The notes beneath the pieces are model-generated. The model did no database searches. It was not told where the DNA came from and saw nothing but the letters and a program-made list of their open reading frames with translations. A DNA stretch of 64,000 nucleotides from Marsupella aquatica (lineage: Eukaryota > Plantae > Marchantiophyta): the NCBI GenBank assembly GCA_973895155.1, contig OZ316895.1, forward strand, positions 21,898,558 through 21,962,557, written 5' to 3'. The position numbers and the translations under genes were made by a program. Positions within the stretch are counted from its first letter, which is position 1. Every line of letters starts with the position of its first letter. Shown piece after piece: positions 2,255 through 64,000 of this stretch.

Positions 2255-2440
2255 CCCCTCCCCGCCCCACCCCACCCCTCCTCCTCCCTGCCCCGCGCCT
2301 CGACGAGCGAGGACCGCGGCGGTCCTGCGCTCCCCGCCCCTCCCCTCCCCTCCTCCTCCCCGCCCCGCGCCTCGACCAGCAAGGGCCGCAGCGGCCCTGC
2401 CCTCCCCGCCCCTCCTCCTCCCCGCCCCACGCCTCGACCA
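2255..2440. repeat. GC-rich degenerate ~60-bp tandem repeat in the Helitron 5' region
   Basis: Recurring ccccgccc..cctcctcc..cccgcgcctcgac units (about 3 copies). Confidence 0.6.
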
Positions 2441-3085
2441 GTGAGGGCCCTCTTGCCCAGCCGCCAGCCCCGGCTCTAGCGCACCCTCCTCACCTCCAGC
2501 CCTGCGCCTTTGACGAGCGCGGGCTTCGACTCCCGCGCCTGGACCATGGCCCAACCCCCTTCGACCACAACTCGGCTGAATTCTCCCCGGACAGCCAATG
2601 ATCTGCCACACAGCAACTGGCCGCGACGACTCCCTCCGTGGCTCGACCCAAAAACCAAAAAGTTTTACTCGCACTGAGTCCAGCCCGCGGCATCTCCATT
2701 GCCATCAACTACCCCCGGGGTTTGGTTTCAGGTCCAGGCGTCCTCAACACGGGTTTCAGGTCCAGGCGCGGGGATTTTGGCAAAATGACATCATCAAACT
2801 TAGCCATCCTTGGTCATAAGTAAGCTTATTTTTATGGTTCTAAGTGTCGGCCCAGCCCTAGGCCTGGTATAACCTCTTGCCACTAGGTTTACCGCTCAAA
2901 TATGCATGGGTTGGGGGCCAAAAATATCGGGACCAAAGGTGGTCCGGGGGTGGCAGGTCCCCAGAAGCATATATGAGGGGACCACCTCCTCTCAAACATC
3001 CAAGTTTGAAAGTGTTGCAAACCACACCACCACCCCAAGGGGGCGTGGCGTTGGCGAGTAAGGAGCCGAGTAAGCTTGGATGAGG

Positions 3086-3530
3086 TACCAATGGGGTTGG
3101 GGGATGCAAGGGGTAGGAAAAAAGGTCTGTTGAAAAGTTGGCCGAGCCGTGCCGTTGCCCCAAGGGGACTCGGCATTGGGGCGGCCAAAGCCAAGTAAGC
3201 GGCCACGGCGACTTTAAGTTAAATGCTTAAAGTAATCAAAAATCTGGGGTTACCAATGGGGTTGGGGGATGCAAGGGGTAGGAAAAAAGTTCTATTGAAA
3301 AGTTGGCTGAGCCGTGCCATTGCCCCAAGGGGTCTCGGCATTGGGGTGGCCAAAGCCAAGTAAGCGGCCACGACGACTTTAAGTTAAATGCTTAAAGTAA
3401 CCAAAAATCTGGGGTTACCAATGGGGTTTGGGGATGCAAGGGGTAGGAAAAATGTTTAGTTGAAAAGTTGGCCAAGCCGTGCCGTTGCCCCAAGGGGTCT
3501 CGGCATAGGGGCGGCCAAAGCCAAGTAAGC
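3086..3530. repeat. 165-bp tandem repeat, ~2.7 copies, upstream of the Helitron ORF
   Basis: taccaatggggtt starts at 3086, 3251 and 3416 (period 165); units near-identical. Confidence 0.9.
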
Positions 3531-3867
3531 AAACATGGGTTAACTTAGGGGCAAGAGGCACAACTCCTGGAAGCAGGAGGAACGTCGCCAAGGTTGGGTG
3601 GGTGGGCGGGATGAGGGGGCCCTTATAGGATGTATCCTTGACGGATATTGGGCTCCTTCTAATATCCCATGTCTCTTGCGATGGTGTCCTCCAACCGGCG
3701 TTCAACTTACTTAGGGTTTGTCAAGCTTGGAATGGGGCATGTAAATTTGAATGACTCAATTAAATTAGAATGACTAACAAAATATGTGTGTTGGATGCAA
3801 ACAACGGACTATGGGCGGGAGCATGGAGTAATTAGGGCTTTCTTATGCTGAGGGTACTGTTGCCAAC

Positions 3868-6800: not shown

Positions 6801-9033
6801 TGGCGGATTTTCCAATTTAAAATGGCAGAGAGTAGTACTTCTGTCCAACGTCTCCAAGTGCATTGTGAAAGGGAGCAGGCGGTGATGTTCAATGAAGATG
6901 CAGACATCGTAAACGTGGTTGAAAGGGAGTCGGACAGGGACACCACTTTGACAGGATGGTTCAAGACAAATGCAATGTTTGAATCAGCACGCCATGTCAC
7001 GTACACTAATTTCCCTCAGGAATGGACGTGGAACAAGGCTCTACGGAAATGGTCTCCGCGTCAGCAAGGGTTTAGCATTGGGCGAATGTACTTTGTGGCA
7101 CCATCGGCTGGGGAGAGATATTATTTGAGAGCCCTCTTGATTGTTGTCACTGGGGCTCAAAGTTTTGAAGATCTCCGAACTTTTGAGAACGTGGTGCATC
7201 CAACGTTCAAAGAGGCCGCCCTCGCGCGTGGATTGTACGAGAATGATGTAGAGTGGGATAGGTGTCTTGGCGAGGCGGGCCTCATGCAGACCGGCTCACA
7301 ACTTCGACGGTTGTTCATCACCATCCTCATCTTTGGCGGCCCCATACAACCCTGTGATCTGTGGACAAGTTACGCTTCAAAGTTGAGTGATGATTGTTGT
7401 CATCGCCTTCTCAGCATGGGTTTTCTTGAACCCTCGGAAGAACAACAAAGGAGCTTCGCATTGTATTTAATTGGACAGGCATTGCACACCCAAGGGAAGA
7501 CGTTGGGCGAATTTGGGTTGCCCCTCCCTTCAGAACAGTTTTGTGAAGATCTGACGAACACCAATCAATTGATACGGGAGGAGATGTCCTATCGCCAGGA
7601 GGATTTGGAACAACAATTGGCTGAGCAGGAGCCGTTGTTGAATGTTGGGCAACGCATTGCTTACACTACAATATTGGAGGCAGTTCGGGGCCGTGAGGCT
7701 TCCACATTCTTCATAGATGGGCCAGGAGGGACAGGGAAGACCTTTGTGGAGAATGTTCTTCTACGTAGGGTGCGGGCTGATGGGGACGTAGCGTTGGCTG
7801 TGGCCTCTTCGGGAATTGCAGGTTTGTTGTTGGATGGAGGTCGCACAGCACATTCAAGGTTTAAGCTTCCTCTCAATCCTGATGCTCAATCACTATGCAA
7901 CGTGAAGAAGCAAACGGAGCTTGCTGAATTGTTGCGAAGGACAACATTCATTCTGTGGGATGAAGCGCCTATGGTTCATCGACATGCTGTGGAGGCGCTT
8001 GATAGGACACTTCGCGACATAAGAGAAGACAACAGAAAGTTTGGGGGGCTGGTGGTTGCATTTGCAGGGGACTTTTGACAAGTGTTGCCGGTGAAAGCAA
8101 GAGCAAGCCGTGCGCAGATTGTGGGAGGATGCTTGAAGAAATCTCACATTTGGCACTCTGTGAAAACATTCAAGCTTACGGAGAATATGCGTGCGCGGGG
8201 TACATCCACTTCAATTGAGTTTGGGAACCAGACTTTCCAAGAATGGCTCCTTCAACTTGGGGATGATAAATTGCCAAAGCAAGGAGCGTTGAATAACATG
8301 ATTATGGTCCCGCCATCCATGACGGAGAACATTGTTGATACCGACTTCTTGATTCGTGCAATTTATCCATCATTGGAGAATATTGATGACAAGTTCCTAA
8401 GCGAGAGAACAATATTGGCGCCAACGAACGAGGAGGCGCTGAAGATCAACAGTTCAATATTGGAAGGGCTAGCTCGCAGGAGATGCGCACACCTTCTTAA
8501 GTATAGATCGCCCCGATCAATTGGAAGGACGTGACTTTTACCCTACTGAGTTCTTGAATACGCTAACACCCAGCGGCTTGCCTCCGCACAAGCTGGTACT
8601 TAAGGTTGGATGCCCTGTTATTCTTTTACGTAATGTCGACTTCACTACAGGATTATGTAACGGGACACGACTCATAGTACGTACAATCAATAGTCGTGTC
8701 ATAGTGGCGCGGGTTCTTGCAGGCAAACATGCAGGGAACATAACGTTCATACCACGTATTCCGTTGACGTCAGATGAGGGACTTCCTTTCATGCTGCGAA
8801 GAGTCCAATTCCCAGTTCGAGTGGCATATGCCATGACTATTAATAAGGCACAAGGTCAGACTTTAGAACATGTAGGATTGCAACTTTCTAAGTCGGTTTT
8901 CAGTCATGGTCAATTGTATGTTGCCTTTTCAAGAGCAACATGTCCTACAAGGATAAAAGTGTTACTTCCAGACGATGAAGATGGAGAAGCAAAGTTGACC
9001 AAAAATGTTGTATATGATGAAGTTCTCTACTAA
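3868..9033 (+). pseudogene. Helitron Rep/PIF1-helicase (RepHel) gene; exons 3868-5183 and 5282-9033; disabled
   Basis: Zn motif CHTCGALHW..CC; Rep motifs DLFITFTCNPKW, EFQKRGLPHAH (HUH), KYLYKYVYKG; helicase DGPGGTGKT, WDEAPM, GDF*QVLPV, MTINKAQGQT, HGQLYVAFSR. A GT-AG intron 5184-5281 joins the frames (..GNR|LNRMPH..). In-frame stops at 4738-4740 and 8076-8078; frameshift near 8470. Confidence 0.95.
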
Positions 9034-13883: not shown

Positions 13884-14879
13884 CGTATAATGGCACAAAT
13901 CACTTGCGGTCTCATACACCGGTACGACTGAATTCCAGGTTTCACAAGGACGTCCCAGCAGCTGGTAGGACAAGGCGAATGTTGGTCTCTACATCCCGTC
14001 CTTTAGGGCCGTCTTGCATGTCCAAGGTTTTTAAAAAAAAATTGGCCCTCAAATGAACCCATGGCATCTCTAAATGAATTGACAAGCTGGCAATCCTGAT
14101 GGCGTCTTTGGAGGATATGCAAGGGCAAGGGCGGGGGCAAGGGCCCAAAACTTTCCGGCCTTTGAGGTCCCAAACTTTGAACTTTGAATAAAACAAAATG
14201 ACAGAAGATCCCTGACTCAATAAGCATTTCACACATAAGGTGTTCTTGATTGTGTTTAGATCCTGGGTCCACACTTTTTCCTGACATCTGTAGGCTGCTA
14301 AGGGTCGCATTTTTCAGGCCTCTTGGACATGCAAGACAGCCCTTAGAGTCACAGATTGCGGGGGGGGGGTGTTGGTATTCTTGGCTGATTTGGAAAAACA
14401 TATTTTCACCTAACGACCACAATTTCGGCAGCCCGGACAATACTTCACAGATTGACTAAGTTTCTATGCATAAACATTTGGTAGGTTATTTACCTCAAGT
14501 ATGAACTTCACACCTAGGACCATCCCTCATTGTCCACAAAGTCTCCATTATTGCAGCTCTTGAACTTGGATGTAAGTCCACAAGTCTCCATTCCAGCTCT
14601 CGAGGTTGGACTCTGGATGACTTAAATTACAGGCAGTCTGAAAAGTTCTTTCAATTTCAACCCCTGTTCAAAGTGATCCCTGTTCAACGTGGCAAAAGTT
14701 TATCTTGAGTTGGAAGCTTAACTCACCCTGAACCTGACTCAAAATGGCCGACAACTCACCCTCCGTCTACCCTTACGGAAAACCAAGAACCAATAAATTT
14801 GCCATGGACCTTTTTGTCAGATTTCATTGTGTCAACACAAGCCTTTTTCTGCCTGCAACTCAGTTGGGTTAAAACAAGT

Positions 14880-15468
14880 TTTTACTATTTTTAACCCAAC
14901 ATCGTTTACTTAACAACTTATTTTGTCTCAGCAACATCTTTTACTTGGTGACATCTTTTGGTTTACGACTGGTGTTAACAACATATGTTATGTCGTAAAC
15001 CATCCGCAAGGATGCTTTCAACCGCGACCTAGAATTTCCCACCCTTTCTTTGTCTGACAGTGCCCCTGGATCTCCTTCCAGTCTTCATGCAAGGATATCA
15101 TCAAGCCGTTGCTGGTGTGTAGGCTTACACTAATGACATTTGTACTAACATTTTTTACTTGTTTGACAACTTTCTTTCTTGCTTCTTTCTTTACTAACAC
15201 TATCCCTTTACCTGTCAACATATTTGACGCAACAACATCTTATTTACTTAAAATAACGTATTTCAACTTACTGACATATTTTTACTTAGTAAACAACATC
15301 ATTGACACAACAACCTATTTTTAATAATTACATGTTTAGTGTCAAGACACTTTTTTAATTAATGATATCTTTTTACTTGACGACATCTTAGAAGCCAAGA
15401 CATCTTTGTTTCCAATGTGACATCCTCAGTAACAATATTTTTTGTGCAACGCATGGGTATTAAACTAG
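14880..15468 (+). mobile_element. Non-autonomous Helitron 3' part (same family as 1741-9564); 5' end not located
   Basis: Degenerate acatcttttt array then tttgtgcaacgcatgggtattaaaCTAG|T (CTAG 15465-15468). Confidence 0.7.
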
Positions 15469-16500: not shown

Positions 16501-17428
16501 GGTCGCCGTTGCTTTTCTTGGAGAAGCTATGGAGGACCTACGACGATTCACAACAGCTGCTTCCTTCCTTGCATTATAAGCGCTCCGGCGTTGCTATCTC
16601 CGCGTTGAGAGGATTAGTGGCACCAGCTAGAAATGCGGGTGGAGGGGAGGACGACGTCGATGGAAATGTCTGATTGGGTGTCTTCTTCCCTCGGATAGAT
16701 AGTTGGTACTGTAGAGGTAGTGGACGGGGCTCTCTGGAGTTCGCTGGAAGGAGCCAGCCCCCGGTGGTCTAGACGCGGTGTGGCGGACTATTCTTCAATC
16801 ATCTCAGTGCAGTGAACGAAGAAGAAAGAGCGGAGCCATAACTAGAGGTGCATCATATTTTCAGGAGGGTAGGGAACAGACCGGCCAGGAGGTGCGAGCG
16901 ACAGGGTCCAGTCGAGAAGGAATCTGAGTTTGAGAGGAAAGGCGAGCAAGTGAGCGAGTGAGTGAGCGGAAGGGGGAAAGAGGGCGTCGTCAAGGCAGGT
17001 GGGCCTCGAATCATCTCGAATCTTGAGCGCTGCGGTGGCCCTCCAGTGAGGGATTGAAACAGCTTCCATACCAACGAAGCGAGAAGTAAAAGAAGAATCT
17101 CGTCTGAGAACTAGCGTTCGTATCGAGCAAGTCGTAGTTGATTGGTAGATATTGGGCGGTACTCTCTAATTGTGGCAGGGGGGCAGGGAATCTTGTGAGG
17201 GAGAACCTTGAGGGTGAGGGCGGAAGCGGCATTTACGTTGAGGAGAACTGATTGCAATTTGGATTCGTCGCACGAGGGGAGGAAGAGTGTTGGTTTTCAG
17301 CTTACCACAGAATTGGATGGAGAAATTTGGTGTTTTGACAGATGCGGATTTCTAAATAGGTTGAATTCTAAGCTGCCCAGGGAATTGATTTGTTAGTGTG
17401 ATCGACCGGTTTCATCGGGATTTTCAGG

Positions 17429-18802
17429 ATGTTGTGGCGAAGCACTTCGACGGGAGTTTTGAGCACTCTTCTTCCAGCAGTCTCCTCTCATCTGCAGCCG
17501 GGGATCTTTGACCTTTATGAGAGGAGTGCGTCAGATCTTTACCATCATCAGTACAGTCCTGCTCATGTCTCGACGCCGAGGTCTGGTATTCAATCCCCTG
17601 CCTCCCAACACTTGAGGCCTTCTGCCGATGTCATATCGCGTTCCACTGATGGAGGCGATTGGGAGGTTGAGGTGGGCTCCGGCAGTGTTTTGCAGTCACG
17701 GCCCAGTTTTCGGAAGGTGCAGTCGGAGAACGATTTGCAATCTCTGTGGAGGACTTCGTCCGGGTCTAGTGCCACCTTCGCTGCGGCGGGCTCCTTCAAT
17801 AATAGCGTCTATGAAGAGGATCGTGTTAGGCGCGGAACCTTGGACAGGCTCGGCTCGGAACTTGACTCTGCCATACTCGAAATGTCAGAGAACTCGGAAG
17901 ATGTTTCATCAGCAGGCTCGGAAGTCGCCGACGAGCCTAGAGAAATGATGTCGATGTTGGGTAATGGTAGTTACTGGAACGAAAGGACGCTGACGATGGG
18001 AAATCAGTCTTCGTCACAGGATGAGGGTCGATACTCCGCTCCTCTGTCGGATGATGCCTCTGGTGTTGTCTCTACGCGTACAAATGCTGCTGAAAGCAGC
18101 TCTTTCAGAGCCACCAGGAGTTCCACTAAGGTTGATAAATCCTATTCCCTATATTCAAGTGAGCAGGACCCAACGAGCATGATGACGAGCATGAGTGCTT
18201 CCACTCTTCAAGCGCCTCCTCGAGGAGCAGTGCTGGAGAGGAGCGCCTACACATCGGGGTCTTCGTCACAGGCCGAGAGTCGTGGCCCCATGCTGATTAC
18301 CGATATCGGATTTGGCAATGGTAATGGGGGAGGCGGGAGGGGAGTCTCAGGAGGAAGGGGAGGAAGTGGTGGTGGATATGGTGATTCTCATGGAGTGGAA
18401 GCTCAGTACCGGAGGATGTTGGAGGCCGATCCAGGAAACCCACTTCTGCTGCGTAATTTCGCGCAGTTCTTGCACGAGGTTAACCGCGATCCTCTCAAAG
18501 CAGAGCCTTATTATGAACGGGCGATTTTGGCCAACCCTCGTGACGGAGAAGTGCTCGGACGGTACGCTCAGCTCATTTGGGAAGTGTACAAGGACGAGGA
18601 TCGGGCCGGCGGTTACTTCGATCAAGCTCTGCAGGCCTGCCCTGATGATTGTTACCTTAACGCTGCTTATGCTTCGTTCTTGTGGTCTTCCGAGGGTGAT
18701 CATGAAGACGAAGTTCATCCACCCGTAGAGGTTTCCCATAGTAATGGTGCCCGATACGTCAACAACATGACTCCCGTGTATGGAGCTGCCACACATGCTT
18801 AG
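17429..18802 (+). CDS. Tetratricopeptide repeat (TPR)-like protein, plant family with MLxRSxS N-terminus and C-terminal TPRs (457 aa)
   Basis: N-terminal MLWRSTST, long Ser-rich region, Gly-rich linker, then YRRMLEADPGNPLLLRNFAQFL..AEPYYERAILANPRDGEVLGRYAQLIW..FDQALQACPDDCYLNAAYASFLW. Splice acceptor ttttcag (ends 17427) just before the ATG suggests a 5' UTR intron. Confidence 0.92.
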   Translation: MLWRSTSTGVLSTLLPAVSSHLQPGIFDLYERSASDLYHHQYSPAHVSTPRSGIQSPASQHLRPSADVISRSTDGGDWEVEVGSGSVLQSRPSFRKVQSENDLQSLWRTSSGSSATFAAAGSFNNSVYEEDRVRRGTLDRLGSELDSAILEMSENSEDVSSAGSEVADEPREMMSMLGNGSYWNERTLTMGNQSSSQDEGRYSAPLSDDASGVVSTRTNAAESSSFRATRSSTKVDKSYSLYSSEQDPTSMMTSMSASTLQAPPRGAVLERSAYTSGSSSQAESRGPMLITDIGFGNGNGGGGRGVSGGRGGSGGGYGDSHGVEAQYRRMLEADPGNPLLLRNFAQFLHEVNRDPLKAEPYYERAILANPRDGEVLGRYAQLIWEVYKDEDRAGGYFDQALQACPDDCYLNAAYASFLWSSEGDHEDEVHPPVEVSHSNGARYVNNMTPVYGAATHA

Positions 18803-22967: not shown

Positions 22968-23056
22968 CCCCCTCTCGAGTAAGTTTTGGGGAGAGAAAGG
23001 AGGACGGTGATGTCCACAAAATAACTTAGGAGAAGAGAGAGGAAGGAAAGGCAAGA

Positions 23057-23521
23057 ATGTCGTTCCGTCATGTGCTAGTGGTGAGTATATGTGGTGTTTT
23101 GGAAGTGGTGGCGCGATTGCTGCAATTGCTGTCAAAGGGATGTAGGGGAGTCTCCCGATGGATTCGTTTGCAGGATGTCGAGGAGTTGATCAGAATGCCG
23201 AAGACAGAGGAGGAGAGGAAGGATCCTCAGGTGCGGATTGGTGAGCAGCAGGAGAGCCGAATGTTAGTGTCATTGAGGAGAGCTGAAGTGCATGAGCCGA
23301 GTGCCCCCTCTGAAGCTCAGGTCTCCCAAGAAGGTCAGGCTGATAGAATGCCGATGTTGTGTAGACGTCGTTATTATGCAGTGGCAGTCGGGCGTAGGCC
23401 AGGAATCTACCTAAATTGGGCAAAAGCAAGTAAGGAGGTCAATGGTTATTCAGGGAATTGTCATCAGAGTTTTTGTACATTGCGGGAGGCAGAGTATTTC
23501 TTGTCAAAATATGGAATGTAG
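23057..23521 (+). CDS. Antisense accessory ORF in Copia: RNase H1 N-terminal hybrid-binding / caulimovirus viroplasmin-like domain protein (154 aa)
   Basis: C-terminal YYAVAVGRRPGIYLNWAKASKEVNGYSGNCHQSFCTLREAEYFL fits the YYAV..GR.PG.Y..W.....V.G......KSF.T..EA..F consensus; ATG start; intact; convergent with pol. Confidence 0.82.
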   Translation: MSFRHVLVVSICGVLEVVARLLQLLSKGCRGVSRWIRLQDVEELIRMPKTEEERKDPQVRIGEQQESRMLVSLRRAEVHEPSAPSEAQVSQEGQADRMPMLCRRRYYAVAVGRRPGIYLNWAKASKEVNGYSGNCHQSFCTLREAEYFLSKYGM

Positions 23522-23535
23522 AAAGAAGGTGTTTT

Positions 23536-26500
23536 TCAGGAGTGTTTCTGTGCTCCTGAAATAGATTTCACTCCAATAAAATCGCGATGTTTCTCAAACT
23601 TGAGTTTTGAGAGAGGCTTGGTGAAGATGTCGGCGGGATTTTCGTTTGTGTTGATGTAAGATAATGAGATTTCCCCCTCTAGCACCCTTTCGCGGATGAA
23701 ATGGTGTTTGCCTTCAATGTGTTTGGTGCGTGCATGGAAAACGGGATTGTTGGCGAGCTTGATAGATCCCTGGTTGTCACAGTGTAAGTGGATGTCAGCA
23801 GAGGTAGGAATGTGTGCATGGGAGAGATTGTGATGAATGGATGAGTTTGAAGAAGTGAGAGGAACGGTAAGTTTGGAGTGAGGATCAAGTTCGGCAAGTA
23901 GTCTGCGAATATGGACAGCTTCCTTAGCCCCTTCGAAAAGTGCCTTGTATTCTGCCTCAGTGGTGCTGTCAGAGACGGTACTTTGAAGCTTGCTGGACCA
24001 TGAGATGGGACCATTCGCTAGTTGAATCAGATAAGCACCACGGGAGCGACGAGTTTCCGGGCATCCAAGAAAATCAGCGTCGGTGAATCCTTGAAGGGAG
24101 GTCGTAGATGTATTGACAAAAGTAATCCCATAGTCAGAAGTGCCGTGTAGGTACTTGAGAATGTTTTGAACAGAATCCCAGTGTCGTTGTTGTGGAGCGC
24201 TCATGTAGCGGCTGACGATGTCGACGGTGTAGGAGATGTCAGGTCGAGTATGAGTTAAAAAAATAAGTTTGCCAACAGCATGGCAATAAGCACTTGTGTC
24301 GAATGGCGGGGTGTTAGTATCAGTTGTGAGGATGTGGCCTTCAGGGAGTGGAATTGACGTTGATGTGTTGACGGAAAATTCATTGATGAGCTCCTGGCAG
24401 TAGGTAGCTTGGTGTAAAATGAGGCCAGTAGGTGTTCGGAGGAACTCAATGCCAAGATATTTCTGGGCCAAGCCGAGGTCCTTCATCTGGTACTTGTGTT
24501 GGAGATGGGATTTGATGTCAGCAATTTTGCCAAAATCGCTGCCGGTGATGAGGAGATCGTCAACATAGAGCATGAGAATAAGGAGCGCCCCATCTGAGTG
24601 ATAGAAGTAGAGATTCGGATCTGCAGTGCTACGGGTCCATCCAGTTACTCGAAGGTGAGAGTCGATTTCACTGTACCAGGCCCGGGGAGATTGTTTGAGA
24701 CCATAGAGTGATCGTCGTAGGCGGCAGACCATTGTTTCCTTTCCAGGAGTCTCAAAACCTTGAGGTTGCTGCATGTAGAGTTCTTCTGTGAGGGTGCCGT
24801 TGAGGAAAGCAGTGATGACGTCCATATGGTGTAGCTCCCATCCGTTGGCTATGGCGAGGGCGATGACAGCACATAGAGTGGACCATTTGACTACAGGGGC
24901 GAAGGTTTCATTGTAGTCGATGCCAAAATTTAGATCAAAACCACGTGCAACGAGCCTAGCTTTCAGTCGAAATCTGGTTGAGTCGGGCTTGACACGAAAG
25001 ACCCATTTTGCTGTGAGGGTGCGTCGTCCAGCAGGGAGGTAGACTAGCTCCCAGGTGCCCATGTCGAGGAGAGATTTGATTTCATCTTCCATGGCCTTCT
25101 TCCATCCTGGGTGTTTGAGAGCCTCTTTGACAGATAGATTTCCACATTCGGATCCAGTGGCTTCGACGAGATTGCTGCTCATTTCGTAGTCGTTGTGCCA
25201 AGGTGGTGGTTGTCGGGTCCGAAGAGAGTGTCGTAGCGCTGGTTGAGGTGTTGGTGGGACAGGATTAATAACAAGTGGCCCACGCGTAATTGGTTCACAT
25301 ACTGGTTCCAGAGGTTCGCAGACAGGCTCCTCTTGTGGAACTGGAGGCTCTTGATCAAGTGCTTGATCGGGCACTGGTTCCCCCTCTGGAGCAAGAATTG
25401 CCGGAGCGATCGAAGCTGTAGGAATATCATCAGTGAGGAGAGATTGAAATAGTAGTTGGGCGGCAGTAGGATTGGTGACGTGAATGCCCATGATATTCTC
25501 GTCGAATGTAACATCTTTGGATATGAGAATGCGTTGGCGTGTAGCATCAAAACAACGATAGGCCTTAGATTGATCGTCATAGCTGAGAAGGGTGGTGCGG
25601 ATGGCTTTGATGCCGAGCTTGGTCTGATGAGAGGCCGGTATAAGAACGTATGCAGTTGAACCAAGAACACGGAGGTGGCTGAGGTCGGGCTTGGAGCCAT
25701 GTAGAGCCTGAAATGGAGTAGTCTGATGAAGGGCGCGTGTGCCGGATTGATTTTGGACGTAATTAGCTGCACGGATACTTTCAGTCCAGAGAGATAGTGG
25801 AAAAGCATCATCAATTAGTATGGTCCGGGCAGCTTCAAGTAGGGTGCGGTTTTTGCGTTCTGCAATGCCATTTTGGTGTGGAGAGTCAACAACGGTTAGT
25901 TGACGTCGATTGCCGTGGAGCCTACAAAAGGATAGAAATTCTGTAGACATGTATTCCCCACCGCGATCTGAGCGAAGACAACCAACTTTGTGGTTGAATT
26001 GGTTTTCAACAAGAATCTTGAAGTCCTTGAATTTTGCGAACGTATCACTTTTGTAAGCGAGGAAGTAAACCCAAGTAAAGCGTGAAAATTCATCGATAAG
26101 AGTGAGAATATACTTGTTGGGACCGGGCCCATGAACTGGTCCGCAGAGGTCAGAGTGAATGAGTTCCAGAGGTCAAGAAGATCGAGAGCGAGAATATTTG
26201 GGAGCTTTGTCCCGATGGTGTTTGCCTAGAACACAGGTGTCACAAACCCGTTTTACCCGAGGAAGGGGTGGTATCCCAGTGACTAAGGACCCCGTGGACA
26301 TGTGATGTACCATCTGGTAATTCACGTGATTGAGGCGACGATGCCAAAGGTCGACAGTGTCGGTGTGAGAGACTTCTGTGAGCAAAATAGGGGACTGCTG
26401 AAGTAAGCCGGAATGACATGAGTGTGAAGCAACTAACGGCAGTGGTTGACGCAGTTTGTAGAGGCGGTTGCGAGGATCGCGAGCTCCTCTGAGGAAGATG

Positions 26501-27842
26501 TTAGACGGATTGTCCTTGTCAAAAACAAAGCAGGATTTTGAATTGAAAAGAATGAGATGGCCTGCATCGGTGAGGGACCCAATGGAGAGAAGATTTTGTT
26601 GAAGACCAGGCACGTACAAAACTTTGTTGATCTCTTTATTGCGATCAATAGAAATGGTACCATGTCCAGCTACAGGCAGCTGAGTACCGCTAGCAGTAGT
26701 CACTGATTCAGAGTGAGAGCCGGCGTTGATAGTGCGGAAGACAGAATTGTCTCCTGTAACGTGAGTGCTTGTGCCGGAGTCGAGTATCCACTCACTAGGA
26801 CTATGGCTAGTTGTGTCAAGCTCAGAGTAGTTTGCTTCAAAATACTCACCGTGCTCATTGTTGTTGTAGACTTCTGTGGTGTCCTCAGATCCATCGTAGT
26901 AGTCAGGAGGGGTCTCAACACTGTTGGCTTGAGGTTGGTACCTGCGTATCCCAGCAGCTTTGAGTTGAAGATCAGCGATTTGAGAATCTAGTTTCTTTAG
27001 ATCACATTGTGGTTCCCAGTGACCGGTCTTTCCACAGTAGTTGCAGGTGCCGATTCGCCGCCCACGTCCAGCTGAGAGAGCAGGATTGGGCCGAGATTGA
27101 GATTGAGGCGGAGGGTTGCGGAAGTTGTTGAGAGGTGGATAAGAATCCGGGCGATGAAAAGGTCATCCCCGGCTGCGAGTGAATGAACGTGTAACAGCCA
27201 TAGCTTCTTCGTGAGACTCAGCCTGAGCCTGTTTGGCCTTCCTCCAGTATTCATCAGATTGCAAACGTTCAAGAAGGTTAGAAAAATTTTGTTTAGGAGT
27301 ACGAGAGAGATCAGCACTGAAAATAGAAACAAATGCATTCCAGCTGAGCGGAAGGCCTTGTAGTACGATATGCATGAGATGTGTTTCGTCCACTTCGGCG
27401 TTGATGCTGGAAAGCTGTCCGGCCAGCTCGTTGATCCGGTTGATGTAGAGTTCCACAGAGCTCCCCTCGACCATGTGTGTAGTCTGAAGCTTCTGCATCA
27501 GGAACATCTGGCGTTGTAGTAGATCTCCACCAAAGCGTTGATGAAAATGCTCTCAACACTTGGCTGGATCGTCGGAGAACTTGTCCACTGTGGACAGAAT
27601 TTGGACTTCACTGTAGATGCAAGGATGGCGACAGCTTTGTCCTTCTTCTTCTGTTTCTCCTTGGCGGTCAGATGGGCTCCGCCATCTATGAAGTTGCCGT
27701 TGGCGTCAGGCTTGGCATTGAAGTTGAGTTCATGAAACACGGCTTCCTTTTTCAGAAGGTTCTTAACCACAATGGTCCAGGCCATGTGGTTACTGGTGCC
27801 ATCTAGCTTATCGGTGTCGGAGAATATCCTCAGTAGTTCCAT
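23536..27842 (-). pseudogene. Copia gag-pol polyprotein, disabled
   Basis: gag from ATG 27842; CCHC knuckle CNYCGKTGHWEPQC (~27005-27046); protease WILDSGTSTHVTG; integrase LWHRRLNH..CDTC, IHSDLCG, RSDRGGEY, QNGIAERKNR; RT KARLVARG, LYGLKQSPRAW, LYVDDLL; RNase H FTDAD, EAEY, HCDNQ, ADIFTK. In-frame TGA at 27163-27165 and 26173-26175; frame disruption in gag near 27500-27600. Confidence 0.95.
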
Positions 27843-27903
27843 GGTAAAAAAAAAGATTGATTCACGAATGAGAAGAATGGTAAAAAATGCAGAATAGTGA
27901 TGT

Positions 27904-28102
27904 GTCAGGGAACCTTTCAACCTGAGCAAAGCAATGAGTAGATCGAATCAAATCTAATCTTATGAATGTCAGTAGTTGCTCTAATCAAGCAAGGAATGTT
28001 CTAAGCAGTGCTCGTGTTAGTCAGGGAACTTTCAACCTGAGTACACGGCGAGTAAATCTAGAATGCTGCTGGTACTAACTGTCAGGGAACTTTCTACCTG
28101 AA
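27904..28102. repeat. Three copies of tcagggaac(c)tttc(a/t)acctga in the Copia 5' leader
   Basis: Copies near 27905, 28021 and 28082. Confidence 0.75.
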
Positions 28103-45189: not shown

Positions 45190-47286
45190 ATGACTGAGGC
45201 CGCGTCAGAGCTGAGGGAGAGTTTACTGCGAGCTCACAACTCCAAGAAGGTGTCCACGAGCTATGGGGTGGGGGAAGGGAAGACGCTGGTGAAGGAGGGA
45301 TACCAACAAGTGTTGACCACAGCAGAAAGCTCAGCTGGATTTGACGGGCTGAGTTTTGGGCAGTACATGCTGGCTGGATCAGTGGCAGGAATGGTAGAGC
45401 ACATGGCGATGTTCCCTGTGGACACCCTGAAGACGCGTATGCAGATGCTGGCGAGTGCCGGGGGATCCATCCACACCACGATTTCGAGAGCTCTCTTCAC
45501 AATCCTGAAAACGGAGGGTCCTCTGGGTCTGTACAGGGGAATTGGGGCCATGGGATTGGGAGCTGGGCCGGCTCATGCTGTGTACTTTTCCGTGTACGAG
45601 CTCGCTAAGGAGAAGCTGGGAGGCAACGCTGAAGGGCACCATCCGTTGGCTCACGGTGCGGCTGGTGGCCTGGCGACAATTGCAAGCGATGCAGTGTTCA
45701 CTCCCATGGATGTTGTCAAGCAGAGGTTGCAAGTCAGGCGGAGCCCCTATAATGGGCTGACCGATTGTGTGAGGACCATGTTGAGAGAAGAGGGCTTGAA
45801 GGCATTCTATGTGTCCTACCGTACCACTGTGATCATGAATGTCCCTTTCACTGCCATCCATTTCGCTTCTTACGAGGCTGCGAAAAAAATTTTGATGGAG
45901 TTCTCTCCAGACAAGGCTAGTGAGGTACTGCAGCCTTTCTCGTTCTCTTTCTCCTTTTCTCCTCTGCTCTTACTAGATTCTTATTTTTCCCTGCTCCCAG
46001 AGAGTGTTTTGGTAAAGTTTTCATTCTTTGCAAAACGTTGTAAATATTGGGTCTTCCGGGATCTTTCCAGTGCAACTATGGAAACTCTTGTCATGAAGTC
46101 ATGAATTCTTGTCAGTGAATGGTGTCTTTCATTACTAGTAGCCCATCTGATAACGCTCGATGGATTACCCACAACTAATGCACTCTCGGTTCGCTAGTAT
46201 GAATTGTCTAGCCTAAACTTCTCCCGCGTGAGATGCGGCCGCCTTGTGGACTCTCGACCGAGTCGTCCTTCTATTGTTTCCCTATGCAAGGCTAGAATTT
46301 CCTTCGCGTTGGGGAACGAAGGCCTCATTTCGTGTCCATAGATGCCAAAGTTGATACTCTCTATTCCTGCTCTCCTCAGTTGCGTACTGAAATCATTATG
46401 CTTAGTATTGAGTTGACAATCGGACTGTCTGCATTGGTACACTGAAGCTCAGGATTCGAGGAATGTTGATTTTTCTAGATGGGGAACTCTTCAATCTCGT
46501 CTAAGCCTGGACTGTGGTATCGTGATATTCTTAGCATTCATTTGCTGATGATTGCCACTGGTGTATTCAGGAAAATCTCTTGACCCATATCACGGCTGGT
46601 GGCGCAGCTGGGGCACTTGCCAGTGCGGTTACTACCCCCTTAGATGTTATAAAGACACGTTTGCAACTACAGGTATGTTTTGGTGGTTTAGGTAGAAATC
46701 CAGGTTGCCACTATTCCTGATCTACAAGCGATGGTTGATGAAAATGTATTAGGTCGTCTCGTCAGATCTGATAAATAATTCTGTATTCAACCCAAAACCT
46801 AGGTCTGTGCTGTAGGATCATTCGAGCTTGTCATCCATACTAATTGTGCGGCCAACTTGTGACGTTCACATAGGGTCTCAAGCTAACAACACCACCCGTT
46901 TCCTTTGGCTCTACTGCGAAAGCTTCATTTTGTGCTAGAAGGATTGCTTACAACCTATTAAATTATCTGAGCACACAAAAGATTTAGATGGATTGGCCTG
47001 TCATTCGCCCATTGAATTACATGGATGCTTTTGATGGAGAGGTGGCCCTCTAACAGGTTAATGCTCTTGTTCATACTTGCAGGGACTTGGTGGGTCTGAA
47101 CGCTTTCAGAATGGATCAGTGCTGTGTGCTGCTAAAAAGATTGTGAAGCAGGAGGGACCTGGAGCATTGCTGAAGGGCATCCGTCCAAGAGTTTTGTTTC
47201 ATACTCCAGCGGCTGCCATTTGTTGGTCAACGTATGAAGCTGGAAAGTCATTCCTTATGCGCTGGAATGGTAGCCAAAATTTATGA
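45190..47286 (+). CDS. MIT: Mitoferrin-like mitochondrial carrier (iron transporter); exons 45190-45924, 46571-46672, 47083-47286; ~346 aa
   Basis: Three carrier signatures PVDTLKTRMQ, PMDVVKQRLQ, PLDVIKTRLQ; mitoferrin motifs AGSVAGMVEHMAMFP, GAGPAHAVYF, MNVPFTAIHF, PAAAICWSTYE; two phase-0 GT-AG introns give a continuous frame. Confidence 0.95.
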
Positions 47287-57760: not shown

Positions 57761-58109
57761 TGAGCTCTGACTTTCAACCCATTCTGTTTTGGCAAGGATG
57801 CAGTACTAAAGTTTTTGACTATCAGTTTTTGCTTCATTGACCTACCACATCTGTGGTTTGCTGATACTAGCCTGGACTATTGCCATAGCAATTAATTTAG
57901 AAATAAGGTCTAAAACAGAGTCTTAATTTAGGGGAAATAAGTCCTCACGACATCCAACCCCCGGTCCAACCCTGTCCAAAATGCTCAAAATTAATCGGCT
58001 TTTGTACCCCAGAGGAGATTTTCAGTACTAAACAATTCAATACGTACACTCTAGTAATACTGTCATTAACTAGACATATACTTGTGTACAATCACTACAA
58101 CACTACCGA

Positions 58110-58520
58110 CCCCTTTTGCGAGCCCCGTCCCATCGCAACTAACAAAGGACCAAATTATGAAATTCCGGCGTTTGCGAAATGCTATGCATCGCAACCCTTT
58201 CGCATTCTTTGAAACCCACAGCTTCGCAATCGGACTTTCGCAACCCCTTCGCAACACCTTCGCACACTACGAAACTTATTTTATCGCACATAAATCACAT
58301 TTATGCGATCTCGACAGACTCTTTATCGGTTTGCGACGCGCTCTGAACTATAACTTATTTGCGAAGCTGTTGTCTTGACAATTCCGTTGCCATTCATATG
58401 GTATCGCATAACTGCGTCAGTCAGGGTGTCGCACAATTGCGGAACCAAAAGTATCGCAATGTTCCAATACTCAATGTATGGCAAGTTTGCGATAGTATGG
58501 CGTTCGCATGTGTTTCGCAA
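58110..58520. repeat. CACTA subterminal repeat field (TTCGCAA/TTGCGAA); further fields at 59440-59605 and 60910-61125
   Basis: Many direct and inverted (t)tcgca/tgcga(a) motifs. Confidence 0.8.
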
Positions 58521-58736
58521 GGATAGTTTGAGGGCTTGGTTTTGTATATTTGGGTTCATAATTGGGTTGGGGTCTTATGCTCCACATGAAGATACCAAAG
58601 CAAAACTTTATATATGCCAAAAATCCCTGAATGTACAAAATTTAGGGTTTTCTAAAACCCTATGGGGTATCAAATACCAAGACACTGTCCTTTGACTAAT
58701 CCCGATGCCATACGGAGTGAACTACATCTGCATCCT

Positions 58737-60796
58737 CTAGAATGGAGCCCGCCTACTCCTCTTTGCTGGCCTCTTCCCCTTGTCCTTCTTGCTTTGGGCG
58801 GGACGAGCTGGACGGGAGGGGGGTGGTGGTGGTGGTGGCGGTGGTGGTGGTGCCTGCTGCTCCTCCCCATCTGGCTCATCCTCATCATCGTCATCATCCT
58901 CATCATCATCCTCCTGGTCTCCTGGTGTGCTAGGTGTGGCAGCACTCCCTGCCCCTCTAGACCCACTCGTGGTGGCCACGGTAGTGTCCCCATCATCAGC
59001 GCCGCTATCCTCCTCACTGCTATCCTCACTCCCCTCCTGCTCCTCCTTATCCTGCTTCCATGTCACAAGGTTAATTCGGGTTTAGGGTTAATAGGAAAAA
59101 TGTATAAACCTTATAAATGGAATGGGTGCGGGTTTAGAAAGGGTACTACAAATCACTCACACTAGCCAACTCTGCATCAACCAACTCAAAGAGATGTCTG
59201 GCCCCATGCTCTGCCCCTATCTCCATCTCCTTTATTGTTATCTTGCGGCGGTACCTCTTATACTACCACAAAAAAATGAAACACCAAAACATAAGGGGCC
59301 CGGGTTAGTAACTAAGGGTACTTAAGCAAAAAAGGAATCCTAAAAAGGGTAAAAAGGGTACCCTAACCAGAAAAAAAACCCATTACCCTAACAAACATTT
59401 GTCACTCGACACTAAACGTTTTTCAAAATGAAACAAGATTTGCGAAACTCCCACCTTCGCAAATTCAAATATATTTAAGTTTGCGAAATAGACTGCGAAT
59501 TGGATTGCCTTGCAATGGCTTCGCAAACCTTACGGGAAAAAGGTTATAATAGAGTTTGCGAAACAATTGCGAGGCAACCCGCTTCGCAATTGTTTCGCAA
59601 ATTGTGCTTTTAAAAAAATCCGAGAAATGGCTAAGGCACGCAATGTGTCAGGGTGACCTAAAACAAAAGGGGAGGCCATAAGGGGTAAAGCAGAGGTCTG
59701 CAAGGGGCATTGCAGGCAAGCAAACAACAATTGAAGGCGAAGGAAAAGAAGCAGGGGAGGAGGGGAGAGGACTCACGAAGGTTGCTTTCAGGCCGGGAAG
59801 TCCACCTTGCCCCATCTTGTGTGTGGTCTTGGGGCGTTTGCTGACTCGGTCTGCTGCAAGGATGAACTTCTCGGGTGGTGTCCCCACTGCATCCACGATG
59901 TGCTGCAGCTGAGAGACCTTCTCAGCCAATGCCTTGAGGTCTTTGTCTGACTTCCCGGCCTGAAGTGCCTTGGCCTCCTTCTCCTTCTAGAATTGGAGGT
60001 CCTTGGTTGCTTTCAGCTGCACCTCGACCTTATAGAACGCGTTCCACACATCCTCTGTGAATTGCACTGGCCTCCTCACGTTCCTGTACTCTTGCAAGCT
60101 TGCCAGGTAGGCCCTCACCTTCCTCCTATCATGGTATCGTGCTTGAGACATTGAATTCGAAATTCTATCTGCAAGCCACTGGTCATCAATCTCTGCTCCA
60201 TTTCTGAATGAATCTTTGACCTGAGTCATTACTTTCCTCTGCTCTGCTCTGCTTAGTTTCCCCCACTCAACACCTCGTGCAAAGCTAGTCCTCACAGCAA
60301 GCCTGATAGTGCTCTTTGCCCCAGTGTAGGCCAACTCAGTAGGAATGCCCTCAACCAAGGCAATCAATGGCAGCTTCTTCCTCTCTTCCTCCTTTTTCCG
60401 CTGCGCCTCACGTTGTGCTCGAATCTCATCTCGTTCCTCCCTTCTCCTCTTCTTTTCGAGGGCTGCAGGAGAGAGTACTCCTGCCTTAGCCCTCTCCTCC
60501 TTCTTTCGTTTCTTCTCTCTGGCCTTCTCCTCAGCTGCAGCCTTTGCCTCTTTCTCCCTCTGAGCCTGCCCTGCTGCAACCCCGGTTTGCAAAGCTTGCC
60601 CTAGAATTGCACTCAAAGAAGCAATCCCAGCTGGTGTACTCAAATCCAAATGGCTTAGCTGTGTGGCATTGAGATGCTCGGCCATCAAATTCGTCCATTG
60701 ATTACTCTCCTCATTCCTGTTCCCTCCATTGCCATTGCCACTCCCACTCCCACTTGCCCCTGCCCCATCCCCTCCACGCCCTCCACTAGAATCCAT
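58737..60796 (-). pseudogene. CACTA accessory gene (TnpA/ORF2-like?), exons 60796-59777, 59262-59161, 59051-58737; one in-frame TAG at 59987-59989
   Basis: Phase-0 GT-AG junctions join the frames; coiled-coil E/K/R region, HKMGQGG motif reminiscent of TnpA/Ptta-type proteins, acidic, poly-Pro and basic tail. Confidence 0.6.
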
Positions 60797-61414
60797 AGCT
60801 ATCCAACACCAAGCGCGCGCAAGCTCTCCTCCTGCCCTCCCTCACTTCAAAAAACGTCGAATGGGCCTTGTAACCCGGCGGGAAGGTCCGAATGCCCAGA
60901 CAAAACACATTTGCGACGCAGTCCGCGTCGCAATTTGCGAATCAGCCCGCTTCGCAACTAGTATCTCAACTTTCCAAAACCAATGCGAAACCACACGCTT
61001 CGCAAAGCCTTCGCAAAGCTGCAGACACGCGAAAAAACGCTCTCGGGCTCTGTTTTTCCGAAGCTGTTGCGAAACATTTTGCTTCGCAAATAATGTGACC
61101 AAATTCTGAAGCAGGTTGCGAAGCAGGTCGGTTCTCAATATCGTGGCAATTCCTGGCGAAATTTTTTTTCACATTCTTTCCCTCCTCCTTTTGTTTAGGC
61201 CATGTAAGTTATACTATGCCCTTTTGTGTAATTAAGAAATTCCGCCGTTTCAAATCCCGGCGTTTGTTAGGGTTGGGTCTTGGATGAAGCTGGGTTTTTT
61301 AGGGGTTAAAAGCGAGATTACCAGTCAAACCTTCCATTTTTTAAGCTATACATGGTGTGGGTGTAGGCTAATTTTGATAAGAGTTGGGTTTTGGTTTAAA
61401 ATTAATAAGTGAGG

Positions 61415-61725
61415 AAAGGGTTTAGGATTAAAGTTGGGTTTGGGTTTAGGGTTTAAGTCTTTAATTTTGGGTTTAAGCAGGGTTTGCATTTATGGTTGTA
61501 GGCTTTTAGGGTTCAAGCAAGGGTTTAGGGTTTAAAACAAAAGAGAGGAAGGGGATTGGGAGTGAGGGTCTAGGTTTTTGTAATAGGTCAGAGGTTTGGG
61601 GGTGAGGGTTTGGAAAAGGCAAAGCAAGGTTAGATGAGATTAATGTTTTAGTTGTTTTACCATGGGTTTTATGGGTTTTAATGGGTTTTATGGATCTTTT
61701 GGGTTTTAATGGTTTTTCCATGGGT
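61415..61725 (+). repeat. Degenerate telomere-like GGGTTT(A/T) repeats between the divergent CACTA genes
   Basis: gggtttagggtttaa, gggttttatgggttttaatgggtttt etc. Confidence 0.55.
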
Positions 61726-61901: not shown

Positions 61902-62162
61902 CTATAAAGAGGACATGTATGTAAGGTGTTCACTTTGTGTACTTGCAGCTTTTCTCATACTTCCAGATTCGGTTCATTATTTTAGAGGCACAAGACCTAT
62001 TGGCACCGCTGAGCCTGGGTCTCAGAAAGGTATTTTTTAGTGTTCCTTTTGTGTTTGGTTTCATGTCATCATTACTTGAGAACTTACATTTGTCCAGCTT
62101 GATATTGTGATGTTATTTGGTAATAACCCCTAACTTGCAAATTATACATCTTTGTAGGGGCA
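61902..62162 (+). promoter_or_regulatory. Putative TATA box and 5' UTR intron (62030-62157) of the CACTA SET/transposase transcript
   Basis: ctataaag at ~61902; donor aaag|gtattt at 62030; acceptor tttgtag ending 62157, 5 nt before ATG 62163. Confidence 0.5.
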
Positions 62163-63313
62163 ATGTCTTCATCTTTTGAGATCTCCACCACAGATTCTTC
62201 CTCCTCCGATGAAGATATACCACCTCCTCCTCAACCTCACACGACTGCACCTCCTCCTCGTGGTCCACCCCGTCAGCTTTGCCAATGTGCCAAATGCGTG
62301 GGTCAGGTTTCCCAAAAGTCCTATATATGCACCCAGCATATTGAGAGATATGGACGTTACGGACGTCATACAACAGGGGCTTCCTCATCCCATGTGGTAA
62401 GTGTTTACGCCTTAGTTTCTACCCTATTTCCACATTGCAATGGTGAAGGTTTTTAATTTCACACCTCTTGTTGTTTGTTTTGGTTTGGGTGGAATAGGTA
62501 TCTAGTAGGCCTAGACCTGCGGCATCAGCACCTTATGTCCCATCACAAGGTGTTCTAGATGTTATAGGCAATGCATTCTCACAAGCCTTGGGTCTAGCAA
62601 CAGCCCCCTCCAGTCCTAGGGCAGTTGGGGGTGAGCCTGTTGTCCCAAGAGGGAGAAAGCGTTCCAAGAGACGGCCCCGAGGGGATACTGATTTGTACAA
62701 GGCAGTGGTTACCGGTAGGTGGGGTGATTGTGAGTTTACTGGCAAATGTGTTCCTATCATCAAGGACTGGGATCCCCAGACTCTTGGTTTGCCACAAGAG
62801 CTTTCCTATGGTGAGGAGGTAGAGGTTTGGGGAAGACGTTGGGTTATCAAACCTTCCACACTTGGGGATAGACATGGCTATGGAGTTTTTGCTTGTGAAG
62901 ACATCATTGTGGATACCGAGAGTGGAAGTGGTGGACGCGGTCGAGAAGGACCTACGTTGTTTCCTTATGGTGGACCCATCTACAAGAGAAGACATTGGAA
63001 CATGATCCTTGCACAACATCCTGAGTGGAAGACTTATGCCTTGGAGTTAGATACTTTTGATGGAAACACTAGGAGGTATAGTGAGCAGCGGGTGATAGAT
63101 GGGGACCCCATACGAACTGGGAATATAGCTGGTTTCATAAACAGTGCTGTGGGGACTCGCCCCAAGCGTAGGCAAAATTGTGAGTGGGTTTTCATTGAGG
63201 GTCCTCCACCAGCCCCTTATGGCCAGACATATCATCATGACCATTGTCTGGTTGTAGCTACTAGGACCATTCACTCAGGTGATGAGTTGTTTACTCACTA
63301 TGTGTGGGATTAG
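62163..63313 (+). CDS. Transposon-borne SET-domain protein (putative lysine methyltransferase); exons 62163-62396 and 62498-63313; ~349 aa
   Basis: Exon 1 has CQCAKC..C..H (transposase-associated-like Zn motif); phase-0 intron 62397-62497; exon 2 has NLS-like RGRKRSKRRPR and SET motifs HGYGVFACEDI, FPYGG, IDG..GNIAGFINSA, NCEW, VATRTIHSGDELFTHY. Confidence 0.85.
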
Positions 63314-63456
63314 AAAATGACCATACACATGGCGTTTGGCCACATTTTGTATTTACACCAGTACCGATATTATTTCATGTTTGCACACCCCCATATATTC
63401 TTCTACATGTTGTAACTATTTGCTTTGTAACTTTCAATTGTTTGCATTGTTTTTAG

Positions 63457-64000
63457 AATGTGCGACCCTCTCAAAATATGTTACCGCGGAGATTGAGAGC
63501 AGCATATCGGGAAATGGGTATGCCGGAAGAAGGACAAGGCTCTGAGTCACATTCCTCATCAAGTGACAGTGGAAGCAACAACCCTGATCGCAATGTACCC
63601 AAAACATATGAACAGGTTATTGATGACCAAGATAGAGCCATGGATGATTTTATGGTTGATTGGTTTGGTGTTGACGTCCCTGGTGATGATGCTGAGGTGT
63701 CTGCTGATCAAGGAGGTCATGTGCCCCCCAATGATCCACGACCAAGACATACCCCCGAGGGACAGCGCCAATGGGAGGAAGCAGAGGAACATGCCCGAAC
63801 TCCTATCTATGAGGGTGCTCGTTTGAGTCGTCTTTCTGCTATCTTGGGGTTGATGAATCTACAGGCCAAACACAAGGCAAGCAATGCCTTGTTATCTGAT
63901 ATGTTTGCACTTTGCCATGACCTTATGTTACCTTCTGGCAATGTGTTGCCAGGAACTTGGAAGGAGGCCAAGCGTGTTCTCTCATCAATTGGCATAGAAT
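63457..64000 (+). CDS. CACTA TnpD/TNP2-type transposase, N-terminal exon (runs off window; missing from the ORF track)
   Basis: After acceptor ttttag (63456) an open phase-0 frame reads NVRPSQNML...ARTPIYEGARLSRLSAILGLMNLQAKHKASNALLSDMFALCHDLMLPSGNVLPGTWKEAKRVLSSIGIE, the typical En/Spm transposase region preceding the IHAC motif. Confidence 0.88.

Follow-up and report, generated by a model that had tools for sequence, protein, structure and literature searches.

Does a land-plant transposon carry a chromatin-modifying enzyme of its own and, if so, is the gene truly part of the element, has selection kept it, and what would its product do? These questions are raised by a 64,000-nucleotide stretch of the genome of the liverwort Marsupella aquatica (contig OZ316895.1, positions 21,898,558 to 21,962,557 of the forward strand; hereafter the window), in which a preliminary description, made from the sequence alone, had placed a SET-domain gene inside a CACTA element.

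The window contains the left part of a CACTA element

A metagenome scan for related elements yielded at least 41 loci from 595 candidate stretches. Among the matches listed, 40 loci are 82-100% identical to the Sphagnum jensenii protein and another one, L001, is 77% identical; metagenome loci in this range (77-100%) are referred to as moss-type. The window itself holds the left part of a CACTA DNA transposon, with a terminus, subterminal repeats, a TnpA-like gene, a SET gene and a transposase exon. The features are the following (strand in brackets where there is one):

58090-58092: AAT, candidate 3-bp target duplication; the right end of the window copy lies outside the window
58093-58102 (+): left terminal inverted repeat CACTACAACA, its first 10 bases the same as the left end of five moss-type loci
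58114-58520: subterminal repeat cluster 1, TTCGCAA/TTGCGAA motif in both orientations, like the clusters in moss-type loci
58737-60796 (-): TnpA-like accessory gene with a basic/coiled stretch, a helical domain and a later acidic/Pro-rich exon; exon limits predicted
59438-59601: subterminal-type repeat cluster 2, inverted copies able to form hairpins
60909-61139: subterminal-type repeat cluster 3, lying where the TnpA-like and SET/transposase genes diverge
62163-62396 (+): coding exon 1, 78 codons, phase 0, with a knuckle C-x-C-x2-C-x13-H at 62280-62354
62397-62497 (+): intron 1, 101 nt, GT-AG
62498-63313 (+): SET exon, 271 codons plus stop, encoding a linker, a basic patch (62648-62680) and the SET core (62690-63310)
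62876, 62966, 63140, 63185 and 63299 (+): GxG, channel Tyr, cofactor Asn, Trp and presumed catalytic Tyr of the SET core, respectively
63314-63456 (+): non-coding spacer, a pyrimidine tract and then an AG acceptor (63455-63456), phase 0; in-frame ATG 21 nt on
63457-64000 (+): first transposase-specific exon of a Tnp2 (Transposase_21) CACTA transposase, continuing past the window edge

The terminus that had been placed at 58093 is indeed present, and comparison of long moss-type loci among the matches listed showed that their mutual homology starts at this very sequence, CACTACAACA. The subterminal repeats of the preliminary description were also found: motifs of the TTCGCAA/TTGCGAA type occur 29 times in 58093-61150, compared with a mean of 1.4 and a maximum of 6 in 200 base shuffles, and 14 times in the first 58 kb of the window. 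CACTA-type left ends are present in the window and in five loci, and the latter have four distinct, unrelated flanks, as dispersed insertions do. One full moss-type copy, L029 (6243-16135, about 9.9 kb), displays all these hallmarks together. Its right end matches the left one at 8 of 10 bases, it is flanked on both sides by ACA, which corresponds to a 3-bp target duplication, subterminal repeats sit at both of its ends, and it matches Transposase_21 (E 8.9e-39) as well as DUF4218. In addition, PF02992 is present in nine of the ten longer homologs of 63457-63999. In relatives, including the full copy L029, the terminus, the SET gene and the transposase are parts of a single element.

The minus-strand gene, which like the knuckle of exon 1 is absent from the preliminary description, is called TnpA-like on a presumed resemblance. 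An ORF 55-65% identical to it lies upstream of SET in 10 of the 14 informative loci among the matches listed, and comparisons of the window with moss-type loci gave dN/dS values of 0.14-0.21. It has no Pfam match above cut-off, and its fold model, built with four sequences, was unusable (pLDDT 45). The window copy of this gene contains a premature TAG at 59987-59989 (- strand), where the frame of L029 is continuous. The window element may therefore no longer be autonomous, though its SET gene is intact.

Several other observations concern the element and its surroundings. A T/G-rich stretch with telomere-like TTAGGG hexamers (61260-61720) lies upstream of the SET/transposase gene; the hexamers were dropped as a family feature, since moss-type copies are without them. 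Reading of the sequence also suggested a possible non-coding exon (61949-62029) before exon 1, with an AG at 61947-61948, a GT at 62030 and the next AG at 62156-62157. The right part of L029 contains a 143-aa minus-strand ORF (14845-15276) that has no Pfam match and is possibly a fourth element gene, and in L036 a 2.5-kb insertion, probably a nested element, separates the promoter region from SET exon 1 (about 2240-4720). Elsewhere the window contains a Helitron RepHel coding region in several frames (3832-9030, +; Helitron_like_N, PIF1), probably young because its open stretches are long, and a Copia-type LTR retrotransposon on the minus strand (23030-27947; gag-pre-integrase, rve, RVT_2). 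A plus-strand ORF at 23030-23518 encodes an RNase H1 N-terminal (Cauli_VI) domain (E 4.9e-16). Host genes are represented by a mitoferrin-type mitochondrial carrier (45193-45927, +) and a TPR protein (17402-18799, +).

Exon 1 and its predicted alternative splicing

The preliminary description treated 62163-63313 as one uninterrupted ORF. This view has to be revised, because the interval is 1151 nt long and the 101-nt GT-AG intron (62397-62497) must be removed to obtain a 349-aa product, which is encoded by two exons, one from the ATG at 62163 to the GT donor at 62397 and the other from 62498 to 63313. Gene models of Calypogeia fissa (P0001, 351 aa) and Sphagnum jensenii (P0004, 343 aa) have the same exon join and the same exon-1 Cys/His knuckle. 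Likewise, a transposase-coding exon does begin at 63457, as had been described, but the transposase does not start there, the position being a splice acceptor.

Exon 1 ends in phase 0, and the frame is kept whether it is spliced to the SET exon or to the transposase exon. Among the matches listed, the donor GT of exon 1 is kept in 20 of 20 loci, the SET acceptor AG in 27 of 29, and the acceptor AG of the transposase exon (63455-63456) occupies the same position in 21 of 23 moss-type loci. Furthermore, seven codons ahead of the transposase ATG are kept between the liverwort and moss-type copies (NVRPSQN and NIRPSED, respectively). Around 63456 the window and L030 have 15 of 43 bases in common in the intron and 13 of 21 in the exon; the conservation of these codons, as against the intron, suggests that they are translated from an upstream exon. 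These patterns point to SET being, probably, an alternative last exon within the first intron of the transposase gene, with exon 1 common to both products. The knuckle of exon 1 presumably resembles a domain at the N terminus of CACTA transposases; of seven sequences with a knuckle, one (P0175) matched Transpos_assoc (PF13963) weakly (E 0.031; 14.9 bits, below the cut-off of 27.7). None of the proteins retrieved has a gene model in which exon 1 is followed directly by the transposase exon. Because of the shared-exon layout SET and transposase would be mutually exclusive products, and a splice choice between mobility and a chromatin enzyme would be an unusual control point.

Fold and active site of the SET domain

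The SET motifs occur in the order given in the preliminary description, and the product of 62498-63310 matches the Pfam SET model with 27.5 bits (E 4.5e-06; curated cut-off 22.4). An AlphaFold2 model based on a 64-row alignment reached a pLDDT of 92.3, and the tops of the lists returned by Foldseek and VIA-align consist only of SET domains (best scores: Foldseek E 6e-07; VIA Z 12.1, rmsd 2.6 over 133 residues). Hence, the product has a SET fold. No Pfam domain flanks SET in the window gene. A single-sequence search of PDB sequences with the window SET gave no matches; matches were obtained with a profile, the best one being LegAS4 (E 5.5e-05).

PRC2, SET1, SET8, SET7/9, NSD2, PR domains and LegAS4 all scored Z 10.8-12.1 at 16-26% identity, with the PRC2 catalytic subunits and SET1 tied at the top (Z 12.1), and the host classes E(z), TRX, ASH, SUVH and ATXR5/6 were all tied, at 16-25% identity to the window SET. 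Tied fold scores at this level of identity therefore assign neither a subfamily nor a substrate to SET. The same holds for the PRDM-type resemblance proposed before, which is not diagnostic. PRDM proteins are defined by a PR domain that is followed by a C2H2 zinc-finger array. Membership of this group was rejected, as PRDM3/5 (Z 10.8-10.9) tie with or score below PRC2, SET1, SET8 and SET7/9, and neither a PR Pfam model match nor a finger array was found.

The roles of the active-site residues are presumed, partly from the alignment to LegAS4. In the 64 rows, which are 25-86% identical, conservation amounts to 60/63 for G63, 62/63 for G65, 64/64 for Y93 (Tyr or Phe), 59/63 for Y116, 56/63 for N151, 56/57 for W166 (Trp or Phe), 52/54 for E199 and 49/53 for Y204. 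When the first Tyr is counted together with Phe, 89-100% of the covering rows keep the GxG, the FPYxG-strand Tyr, the cofactor Asn and both the Glu and the last Tyr of ELxxxY. RFxNH is a canonical SET motif; in this family its Arg is replaced by Gly and the His of NHS by Ser, so that the motif reads G-[YF]-I-N-S. The NSA previously noted in place of NHS is correct as regards the absent His; the Ala is nearly private to the window copy (2/63 rows), the family having N-S-[S/T/V]. Loss of this His lowers but does not exclude activity, because it is likewise absent in the active enzyme LegAS4. The chain stops three residues after the presumed catalytic Tyr, in agreement with the preliminary description, and lacks the post-SET segment, which in characterised SETs closes the cofactor and substrate pockets. 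It is mainly this absence that casts doubt on SET activity. Two positions before the last Tyr the family has a small residue, where LegAS4 has Ile, and LegAS4 has Phe at the position of Trp166; the switch residue of SET7/9 comes from the strand corresponding to Trp166. By analogy, the small residue is no sign of a dead enzyme. Finally, the NLS-like stretch reported to precede SET is the basic patch at 62648-62680, and such a patch lies before the SET core in 26 of 42 homologs, compared with 18 of 298 control windows. Judged from these residues, we are inclined to regard the SET product as catalytically active, and if it is, a histone is its likely substrate.

Copies, linkage and distribution of the SET gene

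Relatives of the SET exon numbered 42 among 2082 candidates and 96 among 1.84 billion representatives, and no ordinary host SET was found among the 42 and 96. Among 30 proteins looked up, the organism-named clusters are from Sphagnum, Calypogeia or Riccia. Five Sphagnum-type clusters have 75-360 members each, and according to locus tags the cluster members listed lie on seven S. fallax and five S. magellanicum chromosomes. Among the matches listed, the transposase lies directly downstream of SET in 23 of the 27 informative loci, i.e. those with at least 230 bases past the expected SET stop; the other four are cut inside SET. A transposase N-terminal profile was run against 235 proteins; gene models that continue from SET into the CACTA transposase were clear for P0028, P0170, P0201 and P0177 and marginal for P0207. 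These models fall into three separate branches of a quick SET tree of 74 rows (P0028; P0170 and P0201; P0177 with P0207), and the linkage therefore predates the split of families that are now 35-45% identical. The SET gene is thus multi-copy and element-bound, which speaks against a single-copy host gene, and it is almost certainly a selected cargo borne by the element.

Two distant members of the SET family in Calypogeia fissa, P0198 and P0235, have repeated Cys/His motifs and a weak DUF5763 match (E 0.007-0.09) and differ in architecture. In viral contigs no SET relative was confirmed among 20 candidate stretches, PHROGs contained no relative of the window SET protein, and giant-virus SETs match at only about 20% identity, no better than cellular SETs.

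Selection and decay

Comparison of the SET exon of the window with 28 loci gave dS values of 0.72-1.05 and dN/dS values of 0.16-0.26, from non-independent pairs that mostly share one path; in the same non-independent pairs dN/dS was 0.12-0.26 for the transposase exon and 0.07-0.14 for exon 1. For SET proper dN/dS was 0.14-0.16 (bootstrap 95% CI 0.08-0.26), and it was 0.26-0.27 between subfamilies, L001 being compared with two other moss-type copies. By these codon comparisons (0.14-0.27 overall) SET is under purifying selection between element families.

A different picture was obtained for the recent moss-type burst. Changes common to several copies gave pN/pS values of 0.69-1.11 for SET and 0.16-0.49 for the transposase, in 18 loci (four were left out as another subfamily or as repeats of one site); the contrast was significant in one of four cuts (Fisher p 0.043, 0.24, 0.28 and 0.28). 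Private changes were neutral in both genes, as expected of dead copies, and 14 of 30 copies have a stop inside the SET core. Within this burst SET looks neutral from its substitution pattern, which fits a trans-acting product selected mainly when a family is founded, or dispensability in peat moss. A strictly self-acting benefit of SET is weakened, because the inherited SET changes are near neutral there. The moss-type copies also show C-to-T decay, at 12% of CG, 15% of CHG and 3% of CHH sites, with A/T transitions at 0.7%; the CG/CHG decay is the trace expected of host methylation. Module swapping, considered since the dS of SET was 0.8 versus 1.5-2.9 in other genes, was dropped, as four-fold sites gave 0.48 versus 0.57-0.59 (39-57 sites).

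Relationship between the liverwort and peat-moss copies

The SET core of the window (62690-63310) is 84% identical to that of Calypogeia, 69-75% to Sphagnum and 35-43% to Riccia (comparison with P0001, P0004, P0042 and P0133), whereas the mitochondrial-carrier gene of the window is 94% identical to that of Calypogeia, 79% to Marchantia, 77% to Riccia and 68% to Sphagnum. The order for SET, with Sphagnum above Riccia, is the reverse of that for the host gene. In a careful tree of 16 named rows, with a midpoint root only, six Sphagnum proteins join the window and Calypogeia in one group, which has 100/100 support and a long stem; a grouping of the window and P0001 with six Riccia rows, chosen after the quick tree, was rejected (p-AU 0.0008). 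These relationships give a hint of possible liverwort-moss horizontal transfer, between bog bryophytes; old paralogy followed by loss accounts for the tree pattern as well.

A predicted chromatin writer and its alternatives

The reading that we favour, with a probability of roughly 0.45, is that the SET exon of the transposase gene encodes a predicted nuclear lysine methyltransferase that acts on chromatin to the benefit of the element family. One pre-mRNA would give rise either to a knuckle-SET protein, by splicing to 62498 with a stop at 63313, or to a knuckle-transposase, by skipping to 63457. The basic patch would direct the SET product into the nucleus and to nucleosomal DNA, and the common knuckle would bring it to the partners or sites of the transposase, probably a repeat-bound TnpA-like protein. 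The product would then methylate a histone tail lysine with SAM, and the mark laid would oppose H3K27/H3K9 and DNA-methylation silencing, in trans on the family and not only on its own copy. Since PRC2 represses TEs in bryophytes, according to the available part of one study (bioRxiv 10.1101/2022.10.24.513474), such a counter-measure would have a target at the histone level. Against a writer speaks the observation that copies are heavily methylated, as traced by C-to-T changes, despite carrying SET. In our judgement SET probably helps rather than restrains the element. A bolder version, which we consider rather doubtful, is that an old bryophyte CACTA clade has an active minimal histone methyltransferase as an exon of its transposase gene, targeted by the knuckle to its own family, where it would lay an anti-silencing mark, and that this clade crossed between leafy liverworts and peat mosses and reached hundreds of copies there. 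If true, a land-plant transposon would be writing histone marks with its own enzyme.

Alternatively, a catalytically dead or weak SET could bind, reading or shielding a histone tail, or titrate a host silencing complex, so that the family would be protected without a mark. SUVH9 and MLL5, reportedly inactive SETs, are among the fold ties together with the PR domains, which agrees with such a binder, as do the missing post-SET segment and the replaced NHS His and RFxNH Arg. However, the GxG and Asn on the cofactor side, as well as the last Tyr, are 89-98% conserved even between deep branches, which would not be required of a pure decoy, and LegAS4 is active without the NHS His; we regard a binder of this kind as unlikely.

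The target might also be other than a histone. The knuckle-SET protein would then methylate the transposase, the TnpA-like protein or a host factor, or would compete through the knuckle, with splicing limiting the output of transposase. This possibility is in keeping with the shared-exon layout, which makes SET and transposase mutually exclusive, and with the ties among folds, in which none of the host families of histone methyltransferases clearly stands out as nearest (16-26% identity, tied Z values) and small SETs of the SET7/9 and SET8 type are included; SET7/9 has many non-histone substrates. It is nevertheless improbable in our view, as the conserved basic patch resembles a nucleosome-binding NLS and a conserved 200-residue enzyme fold is not needed for a splice-based brake.

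A third alternative, distinctly less plausible, is a repressive writer of the H3K27 or H3K9 kind that limits its own element or shuts down rival elements or host genes for defence. A chlorovirus SET writes H3K27 marks on its own, PRC2 catalytic subunits are at the top of the fold scores (Z 12.1) and the copies are heavily methylated, all of which would suit this possibility; yet the top Z is tied with that of the activating writer SET1 (12.1), and selection across many families is harder to maintain for a self-repressor. A neutral host fragment recently captured in the manner of Pack-CACTA elements, or a single-copy host gene beside a transposon, agrees with the near-neutral change in the recent moss-type burst but is largely refuted by the dN/dS of 0.14-0.27 between families, the linkage to the element in three deep branches, the hundreds of dispersed copies and the lack of an ordinary host SET among the 42 and 96 relatives, and is barely credible.

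Relation to known systems

Maize En/Spm, with TnpA and TnpD, has CACTA termini, a 3-bp target duplication and subterminal repeats, and produces more than one protein by splicing from one transcription unit. The window family has the same kinds of termini, duplication and repeats, and likely a spliced multi-product unit, but it differs in that the TnpA-like gene faces away on the opposite strand and that splicing would yield a SET protein as the alternative product. SETMAR/Metnase is a single-copy, domesticated fusion protein of SET and transposase. It resembles the window element in having SET and transposase sequences in one transcription unit (the SETMAR SET scored Z 8.2), whereas here the two are likely alternative products of a mobile multi-copy element.

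The predicted writer is also reminiscent of LegAS4/RomA (PDB 8swi, 5czy), a parasite-encoded chromatin writer that gave the best sequence and Foldseek match and has, like the window SET, an Asn without the following His and a basic NLS before SET. In the text available LegAS4/RomA is described as an H3K14 methyltransferase with a C-terminal switch region, the basic NLS of which is required for nucleosome binding. It differs in that identity is 22-26%, tied with many host SETs, and that its cSET helix and ankyrin repeats are absent here; no common origin is claimed.

As for cargo, VANC of VANDAL MULEs is similar in being an element-encoded accessory protein for which a role against silencing of its own family has been proposed or shown. 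As far as the available descriptions go, VANC is a sequence-specific DNA-binding anti-silencer that causes methylation loss and is without SET, whereas the window gene, a putative anti-silencer, has an enzyme fold. SET as CACTA cargo, unfamiliar to the preliminary description, is less new than it stated. The available parts of two reports describe SET genes in HarbingerS and MuDR of Phytophthora (PMC12730594) and in Helitrons and red-algal Plavaka, which belongs to the EnSpm/CACTA superfamily (bioRxiv 10.1101/2025.02.11.637652). HarbingerS, MuDR and Helitrons are, like the window element, DNA transposons with a SET histone-methyltransferase-like gene, but belong to other superfamilies and hosts, and the text available mentions no shared-exon layout for them. 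Plavaka PAG2 is closer, a SET carried by a widely amplified element of the EnSpm/CACTA superfamily, its function being proposed only; it is a separate accessory gene, an adenine DNA methylase fused to SET, within a PAG1-3 cassette of 17-19 kb elements (bioRxiv 10.1101/2025.02.11.637652, part of the text). Compared with PAG2 as described there, the element studied here is about 10 kb long, has Tnp2 (PF02992) and a land-plant host, and probably contains SET as one exon within its transposase gene; an N6-adenine methylase domain, which PAG2 has, is absent from the window gene and from the 38 proteins scanned.

The openly accessible literature surveyed, mostly as abstracts, contained no land-plant transposon-borne SET gene and reported no functional test of any transposon-borne SET gene. 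The main text of the Sphagnum genome paper (PMC9946827), the available part of which gives CACTA as 6.8% of Sphagnum genomes, does not contain the term "SET domain", and nothing on transposon-borne SET was found in the part of PMC11982613 that was available. SET cargo in transposons is thus already known; the land-plant host and the likely shared exon are what stand out and are notable.

Implications

VANC, the anti-silencer cited as established in the texts available, is a DNA-binding protein. A 207-residue, well-folded domain in bryophytes with model hosts and chromatin tools makes it testable whether transposons write histone marks of their own. In addition, hundreds of annotated Sphagnum "SET domain-containing proteins" are likely transposon cargo and should leave the counts of host chromatin genes.
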